A stretch of DNA of 38,280 nt from Candidatus Avispirillum sp. (GCA_045650355.1 JAZRRC010000172.1:1-38280), one strand, 5' to 3'. Positions 13,871 to 30,925 are shown, numbered from the stretch's first letter. Made by a program: numbers and translations. The notes: generated by a model from the sequence alone, not told the origin.

Positions 13871-13899
13871 TTGACTATCAATGTCGAATGTTATATAAT
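13871..13899 (+). promoter_or_regulatory. sigmaA promoter of the TIR operon
   Basis: TTGACT-17 bp-TATAAT. Confidence 0.75.
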
Positions 13900-13932
13900 A
13901 TTCATTATAATAATACATTCAAGGAGTATGAT

Positions 13933-15078
13933 TTGGCAAATTATTATACCTCTGAAGAAGTAACAAAAAAATCTTTTTTGTTTGTCAGCTATAATCACGA
14001 GAACAAGGAGCTTGTTACGGAAGTTATCGACTTTCTGTTAGATTCCGGTGTTCGTCTCTGGTACGATGCTGATCTGGGAATCGGTGACGAGTGGAACGAA
14101 TTCGCAGAAAAGCTTATAAAGCATCCGAATTGCAAGGGCATTATCTTTTTCAACAGTGTTGAATCCTTTAAAAGTCAGCCTATTTATCAGGAGCGTTGTT
14201 TTGCTCTTGAGAAAGTTGCAGCTTACAAAAAGGAAGGGCGCCATTTCCCCATTTTCCCCGTTAACATCGGTAAGCCCTCTACCCTTCGACTTATCAAAAG
14301 TATTTTCGACAGTCTTCCCGATAGCGAGAAGGAAATCGACCGTGTATTTCCTCTTGAATATCTCAAAAATATTTCAGAAATATTTAAAAGCAATACCATT
14401 TACTGCTATGCCGATCCTGACGACAAGGAAGGCTATATGCAGCGTTTAAATGATGCTATAGCAAAGACTGAGCCCTCAGTTATAGACAAGAGTGCTGTAG
14501 CAATGAAGGAGCTCAGGAGCAGCACCCCTGCCTCCAATCCCGATATCAGGCTGGGAATCTGCAAGGACAAGCTTACCTCTGCTTTACCCGATTACCTTCT
14601 TACAGCAAACAAAATAGTTGAGTATAAGGGAGCCCAGTACATTGTTGAGAACGGTAAAGCTTATTCAGTCAAGCCCATTGTGTGGCGTCCCCTCTACTGC
14701 CATAACGATACGTTCGTTCTTTTATCCGAAGAAATAGTTGATGTGCGCAACGGAGGAAAGGATCTTTCCGAGTGGCTGGAAACAAAATTCCTCACATCAT
14801 GCTTCACCGACGAGGAAAGAGCAAAAATCAGCAAGATCAGACTGCTCACCCCCACAGATATGACAAAAACAGAAAGCGAGACAGCTTTTGTTTTCCCGCC
14901 TTCCGAAGCAAATTCCGAATCCAACTGGTGGATAGATGCCATGGGAACCGGAGTTCTTCAGAAGATCATCAAAAAGAACGGCACAGTTTACAACAGCGGC
15001 TATAACTACCGTATCAAAAAGTGCGGTGTTCGCCCTGTTATTACAGTTCATAAAGATATTATATCCGACTTGGCATGA
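13933..15078 (+). CDS. TIR-domain protein with C-terminal DUF6273-like domain
   Basis: FLFVSYNHEN...LWYD..L..GDEW...IIFFNS.ESFKS..IYQE (TIR_2-like, Glu retained). C-terminal PIVWR..VLLSE..L.EWL..F..EE...WW...GVRPVI. TTG start after AAGGAG. Confidence 0.8.
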   Translation: MANYYTSEEVTKKSFLFVSYNHENKELVTEVIDFLLDSGVRLWYDADLGIGDEWNEFAEKLIKHPNCKGIIFFNSVESFKSQPIYQERCFALEKVAAYKKEGRHFPIFPVNIGKPSTLRLIKSIFDSLPDSEKEIDRVFPLEYLKNISEIFKSNTIYCYADPDDKEGYMQRLNDAIAKTEPSVIDKSAVAMKELRSSTPASNPDIRLGICKDKLTSALPDYLLTANKIVEYKGAQYIVENGKAYSVKPIVWRPLYCHNDTFVLLSEEIVDVRNGGKDLSEWLETKFLTSCFTDEERAKISKIRLLTPTDMTKTESETAFVFPPSEANSESNWWIDAMGTGVLQKIIKKNGTVYNSGYNYRIKKCGVRPVITVHKDIISDLA

Positions 15079-15126
15079 TACCCTTAGCTAAAAAATATTT
15101 ATCAATACATAACAAGGAGAATAATC

Positions 15127-17292
15127 ATGGCATCTGTTAGAAAAGCAAAGTACGGTTCCTTCCAGGACATCATCGACACCACCGCATCCGAGAAAAACGA
15201 TTCTATTTTTAACAACTACAAGCCCAAGGGCGAAATTGGCAAAGAGATTTTTAAAGAGCTTTATAAAAGATTCAATAACGATCCTGCACAGGGCGCTATA
15301 GGCTTTTATATGGACGATACCAAGGCTATCGGTCTTCTCTCCCAGTGCCAGTCTCTTCAGGCACTCCTTCTTTTAGCTTCCGATTTCGGTCTGACATTCG
15401 ACGATAAACGTATCGTATCAGATGATGAAGATAACCTCACCATCCGTGAAATCATGGACATCGTTATCGAAGATATCTTCAAAAGAATCAAAACAAAGGA
15501 AGATCACGTTTATCGCTTTGATGCTTCTCCCTACGAGACAAAGCTGTTCACCGTTGAACGCTCCAACATTGAAGCTATCACATGGGTTATCCCCTGCTTC
15601 CTTCAGGCTCTGAAGTACCACGCAACCATCGGTGAGACCTGTAAATGGGAGGAACAGCTCGTTGACGTTATTTCATACGGTCTCAGATATATCAATGACA
15701 GCTTTATCGACGGAGAGAGCGAGCTTGGTAAGTCAAACAAGCTTGAGATAGGCTGGAACTTCTCCAAGAAGTGCGAAGAGCCTTCTCTTTACTATACGTT
15801 TACCGTTTGTGAATGCTTCGTTGAGTTTTTCACAACCTTTGAAGATTACCTCACCTACAAAGAGGCTGAGCGTATACATAAGACCTACCCCGCAAAAAAT
15901 ATCCCCAAGCAGCTCAGAATCGCCAAGGAAGAGCACGATAAGGAATATGAAAGACTGAAGGCCGCAGGCGACCGAGGCTATGACCCCGATACAGGTAAAA
16001 AGCTTGCACAGTTTGACGAATACAACGAGCTCTTCCTCAGATATAAGGAGATCAACAACGGTATCGCTGATATTGACGGATCTATTTACGGTGAGCTTGA
16101 AGAAAAGTGCAAAATGGTTGCAAGAGAGATCTGGCGTCTCAGTAAAGAGCATCTCGCTGATGACTTTTACTATAACGACCTCAGTACAACCCTGACCGAG
16201 GCAGAAATCTCCATCTCCACCACAAGTGACGCACTCTTTAATACAGTTTACATCATCAACATCATGCTTGATGCAGGTATGGATGAAGAGCTGGAGCTTC
16301 TCAGATCTGTTGCCACAACTCAGGACGAAGCTTTCGAGCTGGAGCAGGAGTACAACAACCTTCTTGAATCCTGCCAGCTTGCTTCTCAGAAGGCTCTCCG
16401 TACATACGAAAAGCTCAAAAACGTAGGTAAAGAATATATCGTTGAGCAGTTCCTTGTCGGTTTCAACGAGAACTTCACTTTCCATAAGGACATCGTTCGA
16501 GAGCTCCGTAAGCGCCGTATGCGTGTATTTACCCTCATTCCTCTGCTTATCCGTACAAACAACGCCATCAGTGAGTACCTCATCAAATACCCTCAGGTAA
16601 ACATGAAGAAGTACCTCGGCTATATTCTTGACAACAGATTTGTTGAAAAGAATAAGGCTAAGTGGATCTGGGAAAATGACGGCTTCTTCAGTGCAAGTAA
16701 CTATTACTACGTTTCCGCTCTCGGTGAGTTCTACGCATACTATGAAAGATACGAAAGCGAATACATAGAAAACTATAACCAGAACGAGGCTCAGCGCAAG
16801 GCTATCATCGAAAAGAGAGACGAGCAGCTCAAAGCACCTACCGGTGAAATCGGTGTGCTTAAGAGAAAGCTTCAGGACAAGGAAAAGGAAATCGAACGTC
16901 TGAAGAAAGAAAAGGAAAGCATTGATACTCCCGTTGAGAATGCAGTTTCCTTGATCGTATCCCGTGAGATGTCCAAGCTGCTTCCCGAAATGCTTTGCAG
17001 CTTCATTGAAAGCTGCAGCGCAGGTCTTACAGTATCCGATATCGATGATACTCCCTGCACAGAGGAGCACAAGCATTTTTCCAATGCTGTCAGCCAGTTT
17101 ATGTTTGCACTTATGAGCAAATATATTTACGATACAGTTCGCTCTACAAAGCTTTCCAAGAGCGAAAATAAAGAAAACCATGAAGTACTCAGAGCAAACG
17201 TTCAGAAAGAGCTTATCCGTTGCCTGAGAAGCTATATTGCCGAAATCAGTAACAGCGATGAGGACAGAAGCTCTTTTTATAACCAGAACTAA
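15127..17292 (+). CDS. Hypothetical 721-aa acidic, mostly helical protein with coiled coil
   Basis: Long ORF, AAGGAG RBS, host-like codon usage, coiled coil (KRKLQDKEKEIERLKKEKE). Confidence 0.85.
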   Translation: MASVRKAKYGSFQDIIDTTASEKNDSIFNNYKPKGEIGKEIFKELYKRFNNDPAQGAIGFYMDDTKAIGLLSQCQSLQALLLLASDFGLTFDDKRIVSDDEDNLTIREIMDIVIEDIFKRIKTKEDHVYRFDASPYETKLFTVERSNIEAITWVIPCFLQALKYHATIGETCKWEEQLVDVISYGLRYINDSFIDGESELGKSNKLEIGWNFSKKCEEPSLYYTFTVCECFVEFFTTFEDYLTYKEAERIHKTYPAKNIPKQLRIAKEEHDKEYERLKAAGDRGYDPDTGKKLAQFDEYNELFLRYKEINNGIADIDGSIYGELEEKCKMVAREIWRLSKEHLADDFYYNDLSTTLTEAEISISTTSDALFNTVYIINIMLDAGMDEELELLRSVATTQDEAFELEQEYNNLLESCQLASQKALRTYEKLKNVGKEYIVEQFLVGFNENFTFHKDIVRELRKRRMRVFTLIPLLIRTNNAISEYLIKYPQVNMKKYLGYILDNRFVEKNKAKWIWENDGFFSASNYYYVSALGEFYAYYERYESEYIENYNQNEAQRKAIIEKRDEQLKAPTGEIGVLKRKLQDKEKEIERLKKEKESIDTPVENAVSLIVSREMSKLLPEMLCSFIESCSAGLTVSDIDDTPCTEEHKHFSNAVSQFMFALMSKYIYDTVRSTKLSKSENKENHEVLRANVQKELIRCLRSYIAEISNSDEDRSSFYNQN

Positions 17293-17307
17293 GGAGACCA
17301 TCTAAAG

Positions 17308-18237
17308 ATGAAGACAATTTCTTTCTTTTCCTATAAAGGCGGTGCGGGACGAAGCACACTTGCTTATAACATAATTCCCATTCTTGCAGCAGAGCATATC
17401 CAGCCCACAGCTGAATCCCCCATTATCGTTGTTGATACTGACGTTGACAGCTGCGGTATGTCTTACCTGCTCAAGGCAGAGAAAAAGGTTACCGATACAA
17501 ACTGCATCCAGCACCTTCTCGGCAACCCCTTTGATACTACCCCCACCTCCTCCGTTGCCACTCATCCCTTCCTTAGCCAGCTTATCCCCGTTGGTAATGC
17601 TTACGGCTATGAGGACAACGACGCTATCCTTCTTCTCCCTGCAAAGGACAACAAAAACATCGGTAAGGATGCCAAAAACAACTATGCTGAGTCCGGCGGA
17701 TTCTCTTACATGGAATCTCTTGAAAGCTTTCTTGAGGTTTGCGATGAGGTTTACGATATCCCCGCAGTTATTTTCGACTCTTCCGTTGGTAACACTGCCC
17801 TTGCAAACATCTCTAACGAAGCTGCAACTATCATTGTGTGCGTTATGCGTCCCACAATTCAGTTCGTAAACGGTACACGCCGCTATCTTCTCGGCGTTGA
17901 GAACGATGAAAAGATGTTCTCAAAGGGTAAGAACATTGTAGTTGTTCCCAACGTTATTCCCCAGAACGAGGTAGTTATCAACGGTCTTCGTTATCCCGAT
18001 GCCGCTATCAGTAAGATCAGAATCGATTTTTCAACCGATTTTGAGGACAGCATCATGCATGACTACCATTTTGACATGCTCGATCCTGATGAATTCGGTA
18101 TCCCCGCAGTAAACCGCTTCATGTGGCTTGAGGATGCACTCTATACTAAAAAAGAGCTTAACGAAAACGAACAGATAGCTCTTCAGCGATACAGAAAGCT
18201 TGCAGCTCTGCTTGACGATATCGACGCTGATTATTAA
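17308..18237 (+). CDS. ParA/MinD-like ATPase with variant Walker A (KGGAGRS)
   Basis: ISFFSYKGGAGRST, IVVDTD, VIFDSSVG, VVVPN. Confidence 0.85.
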   Translation: MKTISFFSYKGGAGRSTLAYNIIPILAAEHIQPTAESPIIVVDTDVDSCGMSYLLKAEKKVTDTNCIQHLLGNPFDTTPTSSVATHPFLSQLIPVGNAYGYEDNDAILLLPAKDNKNIGKDAKNNYAESGGFSYMESLESFLEVCDEVYDIPAVIFDSSVGNTALANISNEAATIIVCVMRPTIQFVNGTRRYLLGVENDEKMFSKGKNIVVVPNVIPQNEVVINGLRYPDAAISKIRIDFSTDFEDSIMHDYHFDMLDPDEFGIPAVNRFMWLEDALYTKKELNENEQIALQRYRKLAALLDDIDADY

Positions 18238-18255
18238 TTTCGGGAGGCCATCTCA

Positions 18256-20589
18256 ATGGTAGAAATATCTGTAACTGAAAAACAACAGTTAGCTAACAGA
18301 ATAGAGGGCATTGGCAAATTCTTTGAAAAAAACGTAAGCGATAATATGAAAAAATACATTCTCGGCGGCACAAAGGTTGCCAGATACGTTAAGCGTATCC
18401 CCGATTATGTTGTTTATATCAATAATATTATGTCTCTTGCGTTCATTTTTGCACACGGATGTCTCAGATGCGATACTGACAGCGAAGAGCCTGTGAGCAA
18501 AAACGTTACAAAGCAAAGCTCTATCCGTATTATAAACAGCCTTAACAAGGCTTACGTTCAGTACCCCGTCACATCTGAGCTTATTCAGTTCGTTCTTTCC
18601 GATATCCAGTTTGAAATGCTCCAGGGTACGGACAGCGAGCTTTACGAGGTATTTGAGCATCTCTGCCCCTTCAGCTCAAAGGAATTTACTCTCACCAAGT
18701 ATTACAAGCTTATCGCAGAATGGAAAGCTGCTCCCTCTCGTTTCAACACAAATTCAAACGATCTTGCGGGCATGTTCCAGAAGCTTTTGCAGAACATGGT
18801 GTTCATCAAGAACTATGATCTTGTTCGCGATGAGGACGGTAATTTCACCTTCTTTGAAAAAGAAGCGATGGAATTCGGTGATATGGGCAAATACAGCACA
18901 GTTCCCGCTTCACATATCATTTATTACGATCCTACCAAATCCCTTGATATGTTTTCTCTTTACAGCATTGAGAAAATCGAAGAGGATTCCTCAAAGCAGC
19001 TTGGACTCAGCTACATCTCCGGAGACGGATTTAAGACCCTTTCCTTCCGAGTATCGGAAGATCTTCCTGAGGATGAAAGCAGCTCTGCCAATTTCATCTG
19101 CTCTGATGCTGAAGAATATTACTATGAAATAATCGGTGAAGGTTGGACACCCGACACCGACGAAACCGACACAAAAAAAAACTCTAATTTTATAGACCAG
19201 GTCCATGCGATCAACTATAAATACATAAAAAACCTGGCTCTGGCCATCTCTGATGCCATCGGAGTCAATATGGGCTCCAAAAGAGCGCTTTATAAAGCAT
19301 ACCATTTCCGCCACAAGGACGTTTTCGAAAAGATAACCTCCCTTGCTGACGTAGAGGATATGAAGCTTGACTGGGACGGCATTATCGTTATGCTTCTCAT
19401 AGAATCAAGCCCTACAAGCGTTCTTGAAACACTTTTCCGTGCTGTTCCCCAAACCTTTATCACTATCGCCAGAAACCTTTGCAAGCGTATCGATAACCCT
19501 GATATGCCTATCTACGGTCTCAACGAAAAAGAGCTTGTGAAAAAGGTTAACGAAATAATCCAGTCCAAGCTCATTTTGGGAGAATCCAGCGGATTCGGTA
19601 AGATTCCCAGAGTCAAATCCGATGAGCGACTCTATGCTCATGCAGCATCGCAGCTCATCATTTCATCAATTTCATCTGCTCTGGAAAGCGATGCTATTGA
19701 AAAAACCATCTGCGCCGGCAATATTTACGACAACATTTCTCTTCTTAACAAGATGAAGTCGGATACGTCTGCCGAGCAAAAATGCAAATATGTCAGCATC
19801 ATTCTCGGAGAAACGTTCAGACATCTTATCTGCTTCTATACAGGCCTTCTCAGCTATGGCGAGATCAAAGCCAAATTTGATGCGGAATCCTGCAACAGCT
19901 GCTTCTCCGAATCAAAGATAGCGTTCTATCAGAAAAAGCTTCACAATGCTTTTATGAATGCTGCAAAAAATGAGGCTAAAGAGCTTAAGGGCTATAACCC
20001 TGCAGACCAGAAGGATATGATTACACTTCTTCACCGCTTTATCACTCTGTGCGAAAACTGCAGCTCTTCCTCTAAAACCAGAACAACCAATGGCCATAAG
20101 CTCTATGCTGCTCTTGGCAGACATGAGCTTCTGAACATCAATGAATTTAAGAACTACGCTCTTGGTTACGTAGAAACCCTTTCCGAAATTAACGAAAATA
20201 ACGTTAACAACTGGATCGCATTTGCTTTGGATGTATTAAAGTATCTCCGTTACGGCAGTTTCAAAAGCAAAACAGATTCTGCCTTCAATGCAGTTTATCC
20301 CTTTACCGCAGTTTATAACCGCGGTAACGAAAACTACGACGGATACAAAACCGTTACCTTTACTCTGTTTATAGACTCTGACAACGACGACAAAACAGAA
20401 AAAGAATACATCAACGTGCTTACTGAGTTTTCTTACAACCTGAGCAATGTTTTCTACTGCCTCCCCAATATCCTCCGTTCCAATAAGAAATGGTGGATAG
20501 ACCCCGTGCTCATCAATTTCAAAGACTTTAACGAGCTGTTCTCCGATGATGACGAAAAGGATAACAGCGACGATACTGCAGAGGAGTAA
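18256..20589 (+). CDS. Hypothetical 777-aa protein
   Basis: Long ORF, GGGAGG RBS, no recognised domain. Confidence 0.85.
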   Translation: MVEISVTEKQQLANRIEGIGKFFEKNVSDNMKKYILGGTKVARYVKRIPDYVVYINNIMSLAFIFAHGCLRCDTDSEEPVSKNVTKQSSIRIINSLNKAYVQYPVTSELIQFVLSDIQFEMLQGTDSELYEVFEHLCPFSSKEFTLTKYYKLIAEWKAAPSRFNTNSNDLAGMFQKLLQNMVFIKNYDLVRDEDGNFTFFEKEAMEFGDMGKYSTVPASHIIYYDPTKSLDMFSLYSIEKIEEDSSKQLGLSYISGDGFKTLSFRVSEDLPEDESSSANFICSDAEEYYYEIIGEGWTPDTDETDTKKNSNFIDQVHAINYKYIKNLALAISDAIGVNMGSKRALYKAYHFRHKDVFEKITSLADVEDMKLDWDGIIVMLLIESSPTSVLETLFRAVPQTFITIARNLCKRIDNPDMPIYGLNEKELVKKVNEIIQSKLILGESSGFGKIPRVKSDERLYAHAASQLIISSISSALESDAIEKTICAGNIYDNISLLNKMKSDTSAEQKCKYVSIILGETFRHLICFYTGLLSYGEIKAKFDAESCNSCFSESKIAFYQKKLHNAFMNAAKNEAKELKGYNPADQKDMITLLHRFITLCENCSSSSKTRTTNGHKLYAALGRHELLNINEFKNYALGYVETLSEINENNVNNWIAFALDVLKYLRYGSFKSKTDSAFNAVYPFTAVYNRGNENYDGYKTVTFTLFIDSDNDDKTEKEYINVLTEFSYNLSNVFYCLPNILRSNKKWWIDPVLINFKDFNELFSDDDEKDNSDDTAEE

Positions 20590-20596
20590 ACAAAAA

Positions 20597-21403
20597 ATGG
20601 TATCAAACCGACATTACATGCTGGACGCATACGGTTGCTTTGTGGAGCAATCAAACAGCATTATGGTAGTAAATGACCTGCTTGTTCAGTTGGCTACTGA
20701 TCTTGAAATGAAGCCGGTCATGCCTCCTTTTCTGATCCCTTTCTACTATTGCAATGACGCTGAGGACGTTGGAATCAGTGCGTTTTGTATCTGCGCAAAC
20801 GGCTCCCACATAACCATTCATACCTTCCCTTATCGCTCCTGCTATTTCGTTGATATTCTGACAGACCAGTTTTTCAGCGAATCAGAGGTTACAAACACTA
20901 TCCGCAACCAGCTTTATGCGAGCAACATAAGTACAAACGTTGTGGACAGAAGAGTTTTCGAGGGTATTGACGGTGCCATCGATACAGATAACGATTTCGG
21001 CCCTCATTACATGATTACGGTAGAAAACCTTGATGCTGACCTGGAAAGCATTTTCTCCTGGCTTGATACTATTGCGCCCAGCATTAACATGCAGGCAATT
21101 TCCCGCCCCTACGTTATCTACGACAATTCTACAAACCCCAATTACATCTCGGGTATTCTTGTTGTAGCGCAGAGCCATATCGCCTTCCATTACTCTATTC
21201 AGGAAAAGGTTGCGAATATTGACATATTCTCATGCAGCTTCCTTGAAAACGGAGCAATTGAATCTCTTATTCATCAGTCTTTCGGTGAAGAAATATCAAT
21301 CAATCTGTTTGCAAGAGGAAGTAAGCATAAGATCGAATGCCAGAAGCGCTCCAGACAAACTATAATAGAAAAGAATTCCGGCTGGCGAGATAATATTATG
21401 TGA
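20597..21403 (+). CDS. Tandem S-adenosylmethionine decarboxylase (SpeD-like) domain protein
   Basis: Two repeats: HYMLDAYGC...GISAF...GSHITIHTFP...VDILT and FGPHYMI...ISGILVVAQSHIAFH...DIFSC. ATG 20597 after GAGGAG. Confidence 0.8.
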   Translation: MVSNRHYMLDAYGCFVEQSNSIMVVNDLLVQLATDLEMKPVMPPFLIPFYYCNDAEDVGISAFCICANGSHITIHTFPYRSCYFVDILTDQFFSESEVTNTIRNQLYASNISTNVVDRRVFEGIDGAIDTDNDFGPHYMITVENLDADLESIFSWLDTIAPSINMQAISRPYVIYDNSTNPNYISGILVVAQSHIAFHYSIQEKVANIDIFSCSFLENGAIESLIHQSFGEEISINLFARGSKHKIECQKRSRQTIIEKNSGWRDNIM

Positions 21404-21407
21404 AAAT

Positions 21408-21455
21408 AAAAGCACAAAAAAAGGATGCAATTCTGCATCCTTTTTTTGTGCTTTT
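21408..21455. terminator. Bidirectional terminator
   Basis: AAAAGCACAAAAAAAGGATGCA-attc-TGCATCCTTTTTTTGTGCTTTT. Confidence 0.9.
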
Positions 21456-21460
21456 AAGCA

Positions 21461-23278
21461 TTAATCGTCGTCCTTTTCCTGCTCCTTGAGAGGAAGCTCA
21501 GCAAAGGGCACAAGGCAGTTGTGAAGCTTTGCAAGGTCATTTCTGCCTTCCTTTTCAACTGTACCTCCGTAGGAATATCCCTCGGAGCGCATATATGCAT
21601 TCCAGCGGCAGTGCTCAAGCTTTCTGATTGCCCAAAGCTCCTCCTGAGTTCTTTCGGAGGGATCCTTGTCAATTCCGGGAATTAAGCAAAGAGATTTCAT
21701 CCTTCTGTGAATTGCAGATGCAAGAGATGACTTGAAATTATAATCGAAGCGCCAGAAATCACTTTCATTGCCCCAGCGCATATGTCTCTGAAGGGCAACT
21801 GCCTCAACGTCGGATCCGAGAATTACTCTTTCGGAATATGATGTTCTGAGGTCACCGATAAAGTCTATATCATAGCTCTGCTGCTTAAAGTTTGTAACAC
21901 CAGTAAGAGCTTCTCTCTTTTCGGAATTATAAACTACGGAATGGATACGGGGAGCATATCCGAGACGGGCAAAAAGTGTGCGAAGCTTTACTGCTGTCGC
22001 TATATTCTTCTCATCATTGCCGAGGGCAACAAATACATACGTTATACGGGGGAGAGCTGCAACAGCATCGTCAAAGCTCTTTGTCTCAACGTCCACACCG
22101 GGATAGATATTGAGCTCATATTTTGCCTCACCGTCAATATCGAATCTTCCGTTGAAGCGGGGATCCATAAGCTCAGGGCAAAGAGAGGTGAATTTTTCGC
22201 AGGCATTCTTATCGCTGTCGAAGGCGTAAATTCTTGCCTCGTAGCCGTCCATCTGGCAGAACCAGGGAAGAGCCTTAGCCATCTCGCGACCGTGGTTACC
22301 CATACCAACAACAAGGGCAGATATCTGCTTTGTGCCCTTTTCATCCTCAACGGCACTGCAGAATATCTTCTCATATCCTTCCTCATAGAGAGTTCTTGTA
22401 ACGAGAGACTGAACCTCGTTTACACGGCGAACCTTGATCTTTACCTCTTTGGTGCCGTTCTCGGTTTCCTCATTAAAGGCATTTGTGAGAAGCATCTCAG
22501 ATTCGATCTGAGTTGAGAACAAATAAAGCTTTGTGTTCTCTCTGTATTTAAACTTTTCTATAAGCTTGAGGGCATGGTCAATGCTCTCGGACTGATCGTT
22601 TCCGATAGCGAAAAAGTTGAGCTCAGCATTTTTGCTGTGGAAGGAAAAGTCGATGGTTACGATATCCTTTTTGAAATAAATAGCACCGATCTCCTTAGCT
22701 CTTTCCAGAAGCTCGTAGCTTTCCTCCTCTTCCTTTTCAAAAACGTCTGTGAAAACGAAGATTCTGTTTTTCTTATCATTTTTGAAAAGGCTTTCCGCAA
22801 GAGAAATAGATCTTTCGTTAAGCTCGGAGAAAATAAATGCCTGAGATGTAAAATGTGTCAGGTATTTCTTATATGCGTTGATGTTCTTGAAAAAAGAAAG
22901 AACAAATCCGAAGGTCATAAGAGGCGCTACAACAAAAAGGAATGAGAAAAACAAAGTATATGCACGGGCCATTCCCTCGGAAAGGTCTGCCATATGGTTC
23001 GTTATAAACTCAAACTCACCGTCAACGATAAAGAGACGGATCATATTGTGTACTGCTATAAAAAACGTCTCAAAAGCGCCGCAGCCGCTGTCGCCGAATG
23101 CATCCATATAAACAGGAACAAACAAAAGCACAGCCGACACAACGATTCCCGCAGAAAAAATCTTTGCAGGATCAAGGAGGCGCCCTCTTCTGTATCTTGT
23201 TTTACTGCGAATTAATGCCGCAACAGAAGCTCCTGCAAGGCACACAGCTGCCAAAATAAAGAAAATCAACCAACTCAT
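21461..23278 (-). CDS. Membrane protein with RCK/TrkA-N-like domains and C-terminal RyR domain
   Basis: N-terminal TMs, Rossmann-like VVGMGNHG, and C-terminal LEHCRWNAYMRSEGYSYG...KLHNCLVPFAELPLKEQEKD typical of RyR repeats. Confidence 0.75.
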   Translation of the reverse strand: MSWLIFFILAAVCLAGASVAALIRSKTRYRRGRLLDPAKIFSAGIVVSAVLLFVPVYMDAFGDSGCGAFETFFIAVHNMIRLFIVDGEFEFITNHMADLSEGMARAYTLFFSFLFVVAPLMTFGFVLSFFKNINAYKKYLTHFTSQAFIFSELNERSISLAESLFKNDKKNRIFVFTDVFEKEEEESYELLERAKEIGAIYFKKDIVTIDFSFHSKNAELNFFAIGNDQSESIDHALKLIEKFKYRENTKLYLFSTQIESEMLLTNAFNEETENGTKEVKIKVRRVNEVQSLVTRTLYEEGYEKIFCSAVEDEKGTKQISALVVGMGNHGREMAKALPWFCQMDGYEARIYAFDSDKNACEKFTSLCPELMDPRFNGRFDIDGEAKYELNIYPGVDVETKSFDDAVAALPRITYVFVALGNDEKNIATAVKLRTLFARLGYAPRIHSVVYNSEKREALTGVTNFKQQSYDIDFIGDLRTSYSERVILGSDVEAVALQRHMRWGNESDFWRFDYNFKSSLASAIHRRMKSLCLIPGIDKDPSERTQEELWAIRKLEHCRWNAYMRSEGYSYGGTVEKEGRNDLAKLHNCLVPFAELPLKEQEKDDD

Positions 23279-23397
23279 AATTTCTTGCCTTCTTTCCGGT
23301 TTCAAAAGGTGCTGATCACCCATTTTTATAAGTTTATTTTATCACAAAAAGATATTCTTCGCAAGGGTATGTGTAATATTTACAAATTAATTAAATC

Positions 23398-29827: not shown

Positions 29828-30925
29828 TTATTTTGTGGCAACGTTGCGTACCTTTTCAATGCCGTCAAGCCCGTTCCATACCTGACCTGCTGCTACGATT
29901 GTGCCGTCCTCCTTAAGACCTACTGTGAGAATATCGCTTGCATAAACTGCGACGATGTTCTTCCAATCGGATACGTCGCACTGACCGTAGCCGTTGCCAC
30001 CTGTGGCAACAACAGTTCCGTCAGAGCGAAGTCCTACAGTGTGATAGCTTCCTGTTGCGATGGCAACGATATCAGTCCACTCTGTAACGTCACCCCGTCC
30101 GTCCTCGTTCTGACCCACGGCAACAACTGTTCCGTCTGCTTTGAGACCGATCACGTGATTGTAAACAAGTGTATCAACATCTACAATGTCTGTCCACTCT
30201 TCAATTCCCGTATAGTACTTATCATAATTTTTGCTTATGGGGTCGGCTGCCACAGTTCCGTCATCTTTAAGGAATATTGCATAGGCTGCGTTGCACTCAA
30301 TGCTCTTTACTCCCGAATATACAGGAGTAGACTTTGATCTGACGTACACGTCACCGTTGGAATCAAGGCCCCAAAGATAGTCTCCGCATCCTGCGATGCT
30401 GACGATATCCTTCCATCCCTCAACAGGATAAGCACTTGAGCTTTCCGTTGTCATAACAACGGTGCCGTCTGATTTAAGGCCGAATGACTGCTTGAGACCT
30501 GCGTGGATCGCAACAATATCCTTCCATTCACTGGTGTTTCTCTGTCCGTTAGAGCCGTTGCCTGTTGAAACTACGGTGCCGTCAGACTTAAGACCAAGAG
30601 CATGATTTCCTCCGGCAGAAACTGCAATTATATCATCCCAGTGGCTGACGTCAAGATTTGTTGCAATAGTGTTTCCGCCGATAGCAAATGCCTTACCGTC
30701 TTCTGTTCTTGCGACAATAATATCGTCACTTACTGAAACGGAATCGATTTTGCCGCGAAATACCTCTTTGGGCTCTTCCTTTTCGCTTTCCTTTGAGGAA
30801 TCATCCTTATCGTGCCCGATAATCGCATCATTTCCGTTATCACTCTTTTCGGAGCCGCACCCCGCAAATGCGCATGCAAGAGTGGCGATTACAAGAAAAA
30901 GAGCTATAATTTTAGTGAGCTTCAT
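29828..30925 (-). CDS. RCC1/BLIP-II-like beta-propeller lipoprotein
   Basis: Lipobox FAGC and repeated W.DIVAI..G..H..GLKSDGTVV..G units. Confidence 0.88.
   Translation of the reverse strand: MKLTKIIALFLVIATLACAFAGCGSEKSDNGNDAIIGHDKDDSSKESEKEEPKEVFRGKIDSVSVSDDIIVARTEDGKAFAIGGNTIATNLDVSHWDDIIAVSAGGNHALGLKSDGTVVSTGNGSNGQRNTSEWKDIVAIHAGLKQSFGLKSDGTVVMTTESSSAYPVEGWKDIVSIAGCGDYLWGLDSNGDVYVRSKSTPVYSGVKSIECNAAYAIFLKDDGTVAADPISKNYDKYYTGIEEWTDIVDVDTLVYNHVIGLKADGTVVAVGQNEDGRGDVTEWTDIVAIATGSYHTVGLRSDGTVVATGGNGYGQCDVSDWKNIVAVYASDILTVGLKEDGTIVAAGQVWNGLDGIEKVRNVATK

Follow-up and report, generated by a model that had tools for sequence, protein, structure and literature searches.

A five-gene TIR, toroid and ParA-like operon of Candidatus Avispirillum sp. 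as a probable instance of the computationally predicted APE conflict systems

Is a compact run of five genes that joins a TIR protein, a ParA-like ATPase and a decarboxylase-like enzyme a conflict system, and if so, does it belong to a kind that has already been described? We have addressed this question for an operon of Candidatus Avispirillum sp. (GCA_045650355.1) that occupies positions 13871-21455 of the contig JAZRRC010000172.1. The whole of this 38,280-base contig (C172) was analysed and is called the window below; it belongs to a metagenome-assembled genome (MAG) of 2.05 Mb in 230 contigs that is 86% complete. The five genes are designated A to E in the order of transcription. We conclude that the operon is probably an instance of the APE (Alpha-Alpha toroid-ParA-Effector) systems, of the subtype that combines a Death-like-domain protein with an upstream TIR fusion and an S-adenosylmethionine (AdoMet) decarboxylase-like enzyme, and that it probably acts in conflict, broadly in the manner proposed for that group. 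It is a new example of a computationally predicted kind of system, not the first description of one. The first-pass annotation of the locus had called the combination undescribed; this was reasonable against catalogues up to 2023, but the APE passages of a recent preprint list this subtype.

APE systems were defined computationally by Li, Burroughs & Aravind (bioRxiv 10.64898/2026.10.19.760177, 22 Oct 2026). According to the APE passages of that preprint, they consist of a conserved neighbourhood of a ParA of the ConB2 clade, an uncharacterised toroid protein and a variable effector. The toroid protein has an N-terminal alpha-alpha toroid akin to the complement C3/C4 thioester domain (TED), in which the TED cysteine is absent and a conserved serine or threonine stands at the equivalent spot, and a C-terminal helix that is long and charged. 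In the ConB2 ParA, Arg replaces the Walker A Lys, and a PG motif lies downstream of sensor-1. One of the effectors has a central bDLD6 domain between helical domains, with an SH3 fold on its N-terminal side and an OB fold on its C-terminal side, and is sometimes fused to a TIR or GNAT domain; for this bDLD6 subtype an upstream TIR-lectin, GNAT fusions and an added deiminase or AdoMet decarboxylase are listed. In the authors' proposal the toroid and ParA together are the primary sensor or barrier, and the enzymes provide a second-line response of the cell-death type, with the AdoMet decarboxylase (AdoMetDC) acting as an AdoMet-depleting effector.

The resemblance of the operon to this scheme begins with protein B (15127-17292, + strand, 721 amino acids). 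B has no Pfam, NCBIfam or PADLOC family and its profile found nothing meaningful in the PDB. Its AlphaFold2 model (pLDDT 88.8) predicts an (alpha/alpha)6 toroid over residues ~10-545 and long C-terminal helices over residues 522-709 (helices 522-569, 574-598, 604-634 and 678-709), where the sequence is rich in K and E. In comparisons made with VIA-align, the toroid aligned over 273-294 residues with the thioester domains of C4 (1hzf, Z 19.7), of alpha-2-macroglobulin and TEP1 (7s62 and 2pn5, Z 19.1), of CD109 (8s3o, Z 19.0) and of C3 (8cem, Z 18.5). B, which had been entered as an unknown in the first-pass annotation, is thus better described as a TED-like toroid protein, and it has in common with the APE toroid both the resemblance to the C4 TED and the long charged C-terminal helices. 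Where its first toroid helix begins, B reads G69-x-L-S72-Q-C. G69 is invariant; of 38 sequences, 33 have Ser at position 72, 1 has Thr and 2 have Cys, and 21 of the 38 have Cys74. Ser72 may be the "conserved serine or threonine" mentioned in the preprint's account of the toroid. An Atlas feature search had placed B nearest to clusters of SCO2524, of the SCO2521-SCO2525 cassette, with a score of 0.77 that the tool rates as no more than a lead; the SCO2524-family profile (NF040567) had no match in the genome at an E-value of 10 or less, a search for a functional paper on the SCO2521-25 genes found none, and the lead was dropped.

Protein C (17308-18237, + strand) is a ParA/MinD-like ATPase with the Walker A sequence KGGAGRS, in which Arg replaces Lys, as it does in ConB2 ParA proteins. 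All 17 aligned homologues have the form KGGAGR[ST], with K10 and R15 invariant; the DxDxD motif (residues 43-47) and the Walker B D157 are likewise invariant in this alignment. The original description of C as a variant ParA ATPase holds. C lacks the canonical deviant Walker A of ParA and MinD, KGGxGK[ST]; its matches to AAA_31 and ParA of Pfam and to NF047398 are weak, and its Pfam and NCBIfam ParA scores are far under the cut-offs. With NF047398, the NCBIfam "KGGVGR-motif variant AAA ATPase", C scores 56-58 bits against a cut-off of 90; the scores of ordinary ParA from other genomes are 40-52 bits, and only 2 of 300 genomes have a true member. Since the score of C is scarcely above that of ordinary ParA, we set the "KGGVGR family" label aside; a literature search for "KGGVGR" found no relevant paper, and the profile of C found nothing meaningful in the PDB. 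The predicted complex of C with residues 545-721 of B scored 0.02 (mark 0.32), a result that counts neither for nor against contact between the two proteins.

Protein D (18256-20589, + strand, 777 amino acids) had also been called unknown. Its structure model (pLDDT 78.6) is that of a multidomain protein, with a helical N-terminus, a beta region at residues 187-282, a Death-fold-like bundle at ~320-417, a helical region and a second beta region at 683-754. Residues 320-417 aligned with Death, DED, PYD or CARD domains in at least 20 of 50 VIA matches, with Z 4.6-5.7 and with 74-86 residues covered of targets 85-110 residues long; a bacterial death-like domain (8ss1, Z 4.8) was among them. D can thus be described as a carrier of a Death-fold-like domain, and the position of that domain at its centre recalls the APE bDLD6 effector, to which it may correspond; the Z scores of the Death-fold matches are weak. 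A Foldseek search of the PDB with the D model gave no match at an E-value of 0.001 or less, and the profile of D found nothing meaningful there. A Cas8c-like identity for D, raised by Atlas clusters at 0.79, had no other support and was rejected.

The remaining two proteins are the enzymes. Protein A (13933-15078, + strand) has an N-terminal TIR domain (Pfam TIR_2 at residues 32-130, E-value 1.4e-10) and a beta-rich C-terminal domain ending in WWI...GVRPVI, for which Pfam gave only a weak match to DUF6273 (E-value 0.011); searched against the PDB, the profile of A matched TIR chains only. Glu102, numbered from the ATG at 13888, is unchanged in 32 of 32 homologues, and from its place in the motif we take it to be the catalytic Glu of TIR NADases. 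Protein E (20597-21403, + strand) matches Pfam AdoMet_dc over two stretches (E-value 4.8e-23), as a fused tandem, or pseudo-dimeric, AdoMetDC-like pyruvoyl enzyme. The C-terminal half retains A-[QE]-S-H-I..H-Y and D.FSC in 23 of 23 sequences, with Ser193, His194 and Cys213 invariant, and these motifs align with two features of the Aquifex AdoMetDC (2iii), its AESH cleavage site and its Cys. In the N-terminal half the counterpart of the Ser is replaced by Gly in many homologues. E thus resembles a pseudo-dimer that has only one pyruvoyl site. With the TIR Glu in A and the decarboxylase Ser, His and Cys in E, both enzymes look catalytically competent, and the TIR and tandem decarboxylase-like assignments made at first sight are borne out. 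The upstream TIR fusion and the AdoMetDC gene are both among the features that the preprint gives for the bDLD6 subtype; its APE passages make no mention of a tandem pseudo-dimer with one pyruvoyl Ser.

The five genes form a discrete operon, as had been proposed from the spacing of the genes, a promoter, ribosome-binding sites and a terminator. The ORFs are co-oriented on the + strand from 13888 or 13933 to 21403, with a near-consensus promoter ahead of them and a hairpin terminator behind. The intergenic distances are 48 nt (A-B), 15 nt (B-C), 18 nt (C-D) and 7 nt (D-E), the last of these with E starting at the ATG at 20597; a longer in-frame ATG at 20546 would make E overlap D. Sequences resembling ribosome-binding sites (AAGGAG, GGGAGG or GAGGAG) lie 6-11 nt upstream of the start of every gene. 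The sigma-70-like promoter TTGACT-17-TATAAT (13871-13899, + strand) matches the consensus at 11 of 12 positions and is the top-scoring of 22 promoter-like sites between 13400 and 21800, a region for which shuffled sequences gave 15.6 +/- 4.2 sites. Since this promoter overlaps the ATG at 13888, from which the ORF of A is open, we infer a transcription start near 13906, and the in-frame TTG at 13933 is the likely true start of A: AAGGAG (13921-13926) stands six nt before it and the N-termini of homologues agree. The hairpin at 21409-21454, which the terminator scan reported on the - strand, has a 20-pair stem with 7 GC pairs, a GC-rich inner stem, an A-run upstream and a T-run downstream; because of these two runs it can end both the operon and the convergent gene at 21461-23323. 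Most likely, a 522-residue ORF that lies antisense within gene B (15733-17301, - strand) is a shadow frame of that gene.

The first-pass annotation had named co-occurrence of the five genes in other genomes, beforehand, as a test of the system. A single scan of GTDB species-representative genomes with a profile of C provided 72 loci, all but one of them in MAGs of gut Bacillota. By tblastn, B adjoins C in 71 of the 72, and in 38 of the 71 loci that gave any tblastn match the five genes stand in the order A-B-C-D-E, so that the set does recur as proposed. From locus to locus, the identity of A, B, D and E rises and falls with that of C (Spearman 0.89-0.97, a descriptive figure only). Three flanking genes of the window (LDH-like, ZIP and nucleoside hydrolase) are found at none of the 72 loci, and the flanks differ at every locus. 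Among 1.84 billion cluster representatives, the B family has 361 representatives at an E-value of 0.001 or less; the E and C families comprise 330 and 160 clusters, respectively. The distribution is patchy: B was present in only 1 of 150 other sampled genomes of the same order and in none of 7 of the same family.

Around the constant B-C neighbourhood the terminal genes vary, as the definition of APE has it, between E, a GNAT protein and a deiminase. The architectures and the ParA tree were drawn from 62 of 73 sources, C being uncalled in the others (L020, L024, L027, L028, L030, L053, L054, L058, L059, L061 and L073); tblastn shows cassette genes in these 11 sources, L073 excepted. By ORF clustering, 32 of the 62 have the architecture of the window (T1). 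In nine sources (T2) the order is a TIR protein of ~600 residues, an agmatine-deiminase-like protein, B, C, a 230-residue protein (cluster c7) and E. The deiminase-like protein matches PAD_porph (E-value 1.3e-88) and is a full-length AguA-like protein that scores 318.7 bits with TIGR03380 against a cut-off of 381.8; the 230-residue protein has its counterpart in the ~260 N-terminal residues of D, with which it is homologous (hhalign probability 98.5%, E-value 3.7e-15), and such a truncated D likewise does not appear in the preprint's APE passages. In 13 sources (T3) A-B-C-D is accompanied by a GNAT, either as a separate gene or fused to D (~960 residues), for which the best match is RimI, the spermidine acetyltransferase model PaiA reaching an E-value of only 1e-4. 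The deiminase of T2 and the separate or D-fused GNAT of T3 again correspond to the listed bDLD6 variants. The three architectures are three supported clades of the ParA tree (98/98, 100/100 and 99/94), with host families mixed inside each. One hybrid locus, L044, has the order agmatine-deiminase-like, B, C, full-length D and E, with no TIR gene by tblastn; its ParA is a long branch within the T2 clade.

What the analysis shows is the order of the genes, the identity of their domains, the conservation of residues of the catalytic type, joint inheritance and a patchy distribution. From these and the preprint's model a mechanism can be sketched, every functional step of it being conjectural. B and C would be the constant sensor or switch pair, B being a toroid that looks like the complement thioester domain and ends in a long, charged tail of helices, and C a ParA-type switch, with Arg for the Walker A Lys, that dimerises with ATP. 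The pair would recognise or coat an invading element. D would oligomerise through its Death-like domain and couple the switch to the enzymes. A, with its putative catalytic Glu, would consume or convert NAD+, and E, as a pyruvoyl decarboxylase that processes itself and has one active site in each fused pseudo-dimer, would remove AdoMet or another substrate of the amino-acid type. In the end the infected cell would be arrested in its metabolism, or the invader would be blocked.

Several results weigh against this assignment or against parts of it. The sole source for APE systems is the comparative genomics of the preprint. C has no literal "PG" dipeptide of the kind that the preprint's APE passages give for ConB2; it has an invariant S48-C49-G50 after DxDxD and P94-V95-G96 further on. 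In the model of B the kinship with thioester domains is not exclusive, since GH76 mannanases (Z 18.9), squalene cyclases (Z 17.9) and AGE epimerases are nearly equal, all within Z 17-19. The Z scores of the Death-fold matches of D are, by the tool's own warning, in a range that may reflect just a common helical arrangement. With the NCBIfam AdoMetDC equivalog TIGR03330, E scores 60.7 bits against a cut-off of 75.65, so that AdoMet is only its putative substrate. PADLOC-DB v2.0.0 gave weak single-domain matches only (bSEFIR, 5e-6; ThsB, 4.9e-4; PDC-M28B, 2.5e-6, in C). Finally, enrichment of known defence genes near the cassette was not shown among the 25 commonest of the 96 Pfam families in 108 of 245 computed flanking proteins, from 33 loci; the commonest families are ordinary metabolic, transport and regulatory ones, with the exception of TIR_2 (2 proteins).

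The alternative that survives best keeps the operon as a conflict system, the variable enzymes being not interchangeable killers but enzymes that act on one class of small amines. Either E would make an amine that the TIR protein joins to ADP-ribose to yield a signal, or the system would remodel polyamines on which the invader depends. At the variable positions stand a homologue of AdoMetDC, a near-AguA protein and a GNAT, the first two of them together in T2, which suggests amine or polyamine chemistry rather than exchangeable toxins. These positions hold three families that include enzymes of polyamine metabolism, and a deiminase-like and a decarboxylase-like gene in one operon fit a two-step pathway better than redundant toxins; some homologues of E are also labelled "S-adenosylmethionine/arginine decarboxylase-like" by JGI. 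However, the GNAT is generic, with RimI rather than PaiA as its best match, neither a spermidine synthase nor any other polyamine gene is found in the cassette, and the APE passages of the preprint take E as an AdoMet-depleting effector. We consider this variant unlikely.

A bolder reading joins an amine arm of this kind to a covalent role for B. The toroid would form an ester of the Ser-Gln type and tag the invader inside the cell, as a ParA-driven opsonin resembling complement, while the decarboxylase, the deiminase-like enzyme and the GNAT would feed an amine into a TIR-made ADP-ribose conjugate signal or strip the polyamines that phage DNA needs. If true, this would bring in two chemistries not yet shown in bacterial immunity; we regard it as distinctly improbable.

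We also considered that the operon might have no immune role and be an accessory metabolic or biosynthetic operon, making for example a modified polyamine or a nucleotide-derived metabolite, with the ParA-like protein and the toroid as enzyme or scaffold. The surroundings of the operon are in keeping with this. Its neighbours in the window are ordinary, mostly housekeeping genes (class II aminoacyl-tRNA synthetase-like, aldose epimerase, rRNA adenine dimethylase, ZIP, D-2-hydroxyacid dehydrogenase, nucleoside hydrolase, UvrB and others), with no integrase or transposase among the 20 flanking ORFs scanned. The composition is host-like, with a GC content of 43.1% against 46.0% for the genome; among 158 genome windows of equal size the operon lies at the 12th percentile for GC and at the 86th for tetranucleotide distance, which is not distinctive. 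The (alpha/alpha)6 toroid is, moreover, common in enzymes (GH76, AGE epimerases and terpene cyclases). Yet B has no GH76 or AGE family match by sequence, its occurrence is very patchy, and a TIR domain with a conserved Glu, a Death-fold-like domain and a modular exchange of the terminal enzymes around an unchanging core are typical of conflict systems. On these grounds a non-immune role seems very unlikely, and the conflict-module reading with which the locus was first presented is judged the best. The absence of flanking integrases or transposases noted at that stage also stands; the long residence deduced from it and from a host-like codon usage is doubtful, given the single occurrence of B in 150 other genomes of the order and flanks that differ everywhere.

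Least probable of all is a selfish cassette of the addiction type, in which the other proteins restrain a toxic TIR protein or decarboxylase and persistence is due to post-segregational killing, for horizontal spread as a unit among unrelated gut Bacillota and the carriage of potentially toxic enzymes would fit it, but B was absent by tblastn from the 72,556 plasmid and 50,697 phage records searched, no recombinase lies nearby in the window, and five large genes would be unusual for a toxin-antitoxin module.

If the operon is an APE system, and if the predictions for APE systems are right, three modules that are otherwise familiar from the innate immunity of animals, namely a thioester-domain fold of the complement type, a Death-fold module for oligomerisation and a TIR enzyme, would be united beneath a ParA switch, together with a metabolite-destroying pyruvoyl enzyme whose role in defence is only predicted. 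The window and the 71 related loci with a B-C core offer a compact and well-delimited five-gene test case for the hypotheses of the preprint, with the TIR Glu102, the ParA Lys10 and Arg15, the toroid Ser72 and the decarboxylase Ser193 as targets for mutation. What the present analysis adds is the three sister architectures, the single conserved pyruvoyl Ser of E, and the agmatine-deiminase-like partner that hints at amine or polyamine chemistry.

A few neighbouring genes deserve mention. The gene convergent to the operon (21461-23323, - strand) encodes a 620-residue protein with hydrophobic N-terminal helices and weak matches to TrkA_N and to the RyR domain. Its homologues adjoin the cassette in 2 of the 72 loci, directly after E in L055 (28% identity) and upstream in L024 (47%); it may be either a companion that recurs or an accessory gene in its own right. 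Proteins of ~690-730 residues with only a weak AAA_5 match (cluster c16) recur beside the cassette in three otherwise unrelated loci (L036, L051 and L055), that of L055 standing after the RyR-domain protein; PADLOC gave no match. Another cluster (c13, ~680-790 residues) recurs beside T3-type cassettes in L042, L043 and L067, the L043 member being without a PADLOC match. Downstream of the T3 cassette of L068, six small paralogous ORFs (77-142 residues, cluster c9) stand in a row (L068:9719-12541). Farther away in the window, a protein with RCC1 repeats (RCC1_2, E-value 1.2e-30) is encoded at 29828-30925 on the - strand.

Comparison with other known systems sets the operon apart from each of them. 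PADLOC-DB v2.0.0 gave no full-system match, and B, D and E had no match in it at all. Among the other papers listed for the toroid, ParA, the thioester domain and anti-phage systems, none describes this system, to judge by title and abstract; for AdoMetDC, anti-phage and TIR together the only match was the HEC-07 preprint, whose architecture is unrelated. Thoeris resembles the operon in that a TIR protein with a conserved Glu is encoded in a multigene operon, and the weak ThsB match reflects this likeness. However, no ThsA-type SIR2, Macro or SLOG effector is present in the five proteins or in the neighbour, the TIR domain of the window is fused to another domain, and the core of the system is ParA and the toroid. 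E belongs to the same fold family as the class 1 AdoMetDC enzymes (SpeD/SpeH, PF02675) and has a self-cleavage motif of the A-E-S-H type with a downstream Cys; it differs from them in joining two copies in one chain, of which the second alone keeps the Ser, in having Gln rather than Glu before that Ser in the window, and in the lack of a spermidine synthase partner in the cassette. The thioester domains of complement C3/C4 and of alpha-2-macroglobulin, lastly, are built on the same (alpha/alpha)6 toroid as B; where they have the CGEQ motif, B, an intracellular protein with no signal peptide noted, has the stretch from G69 to Cys74 that includes Ser72.

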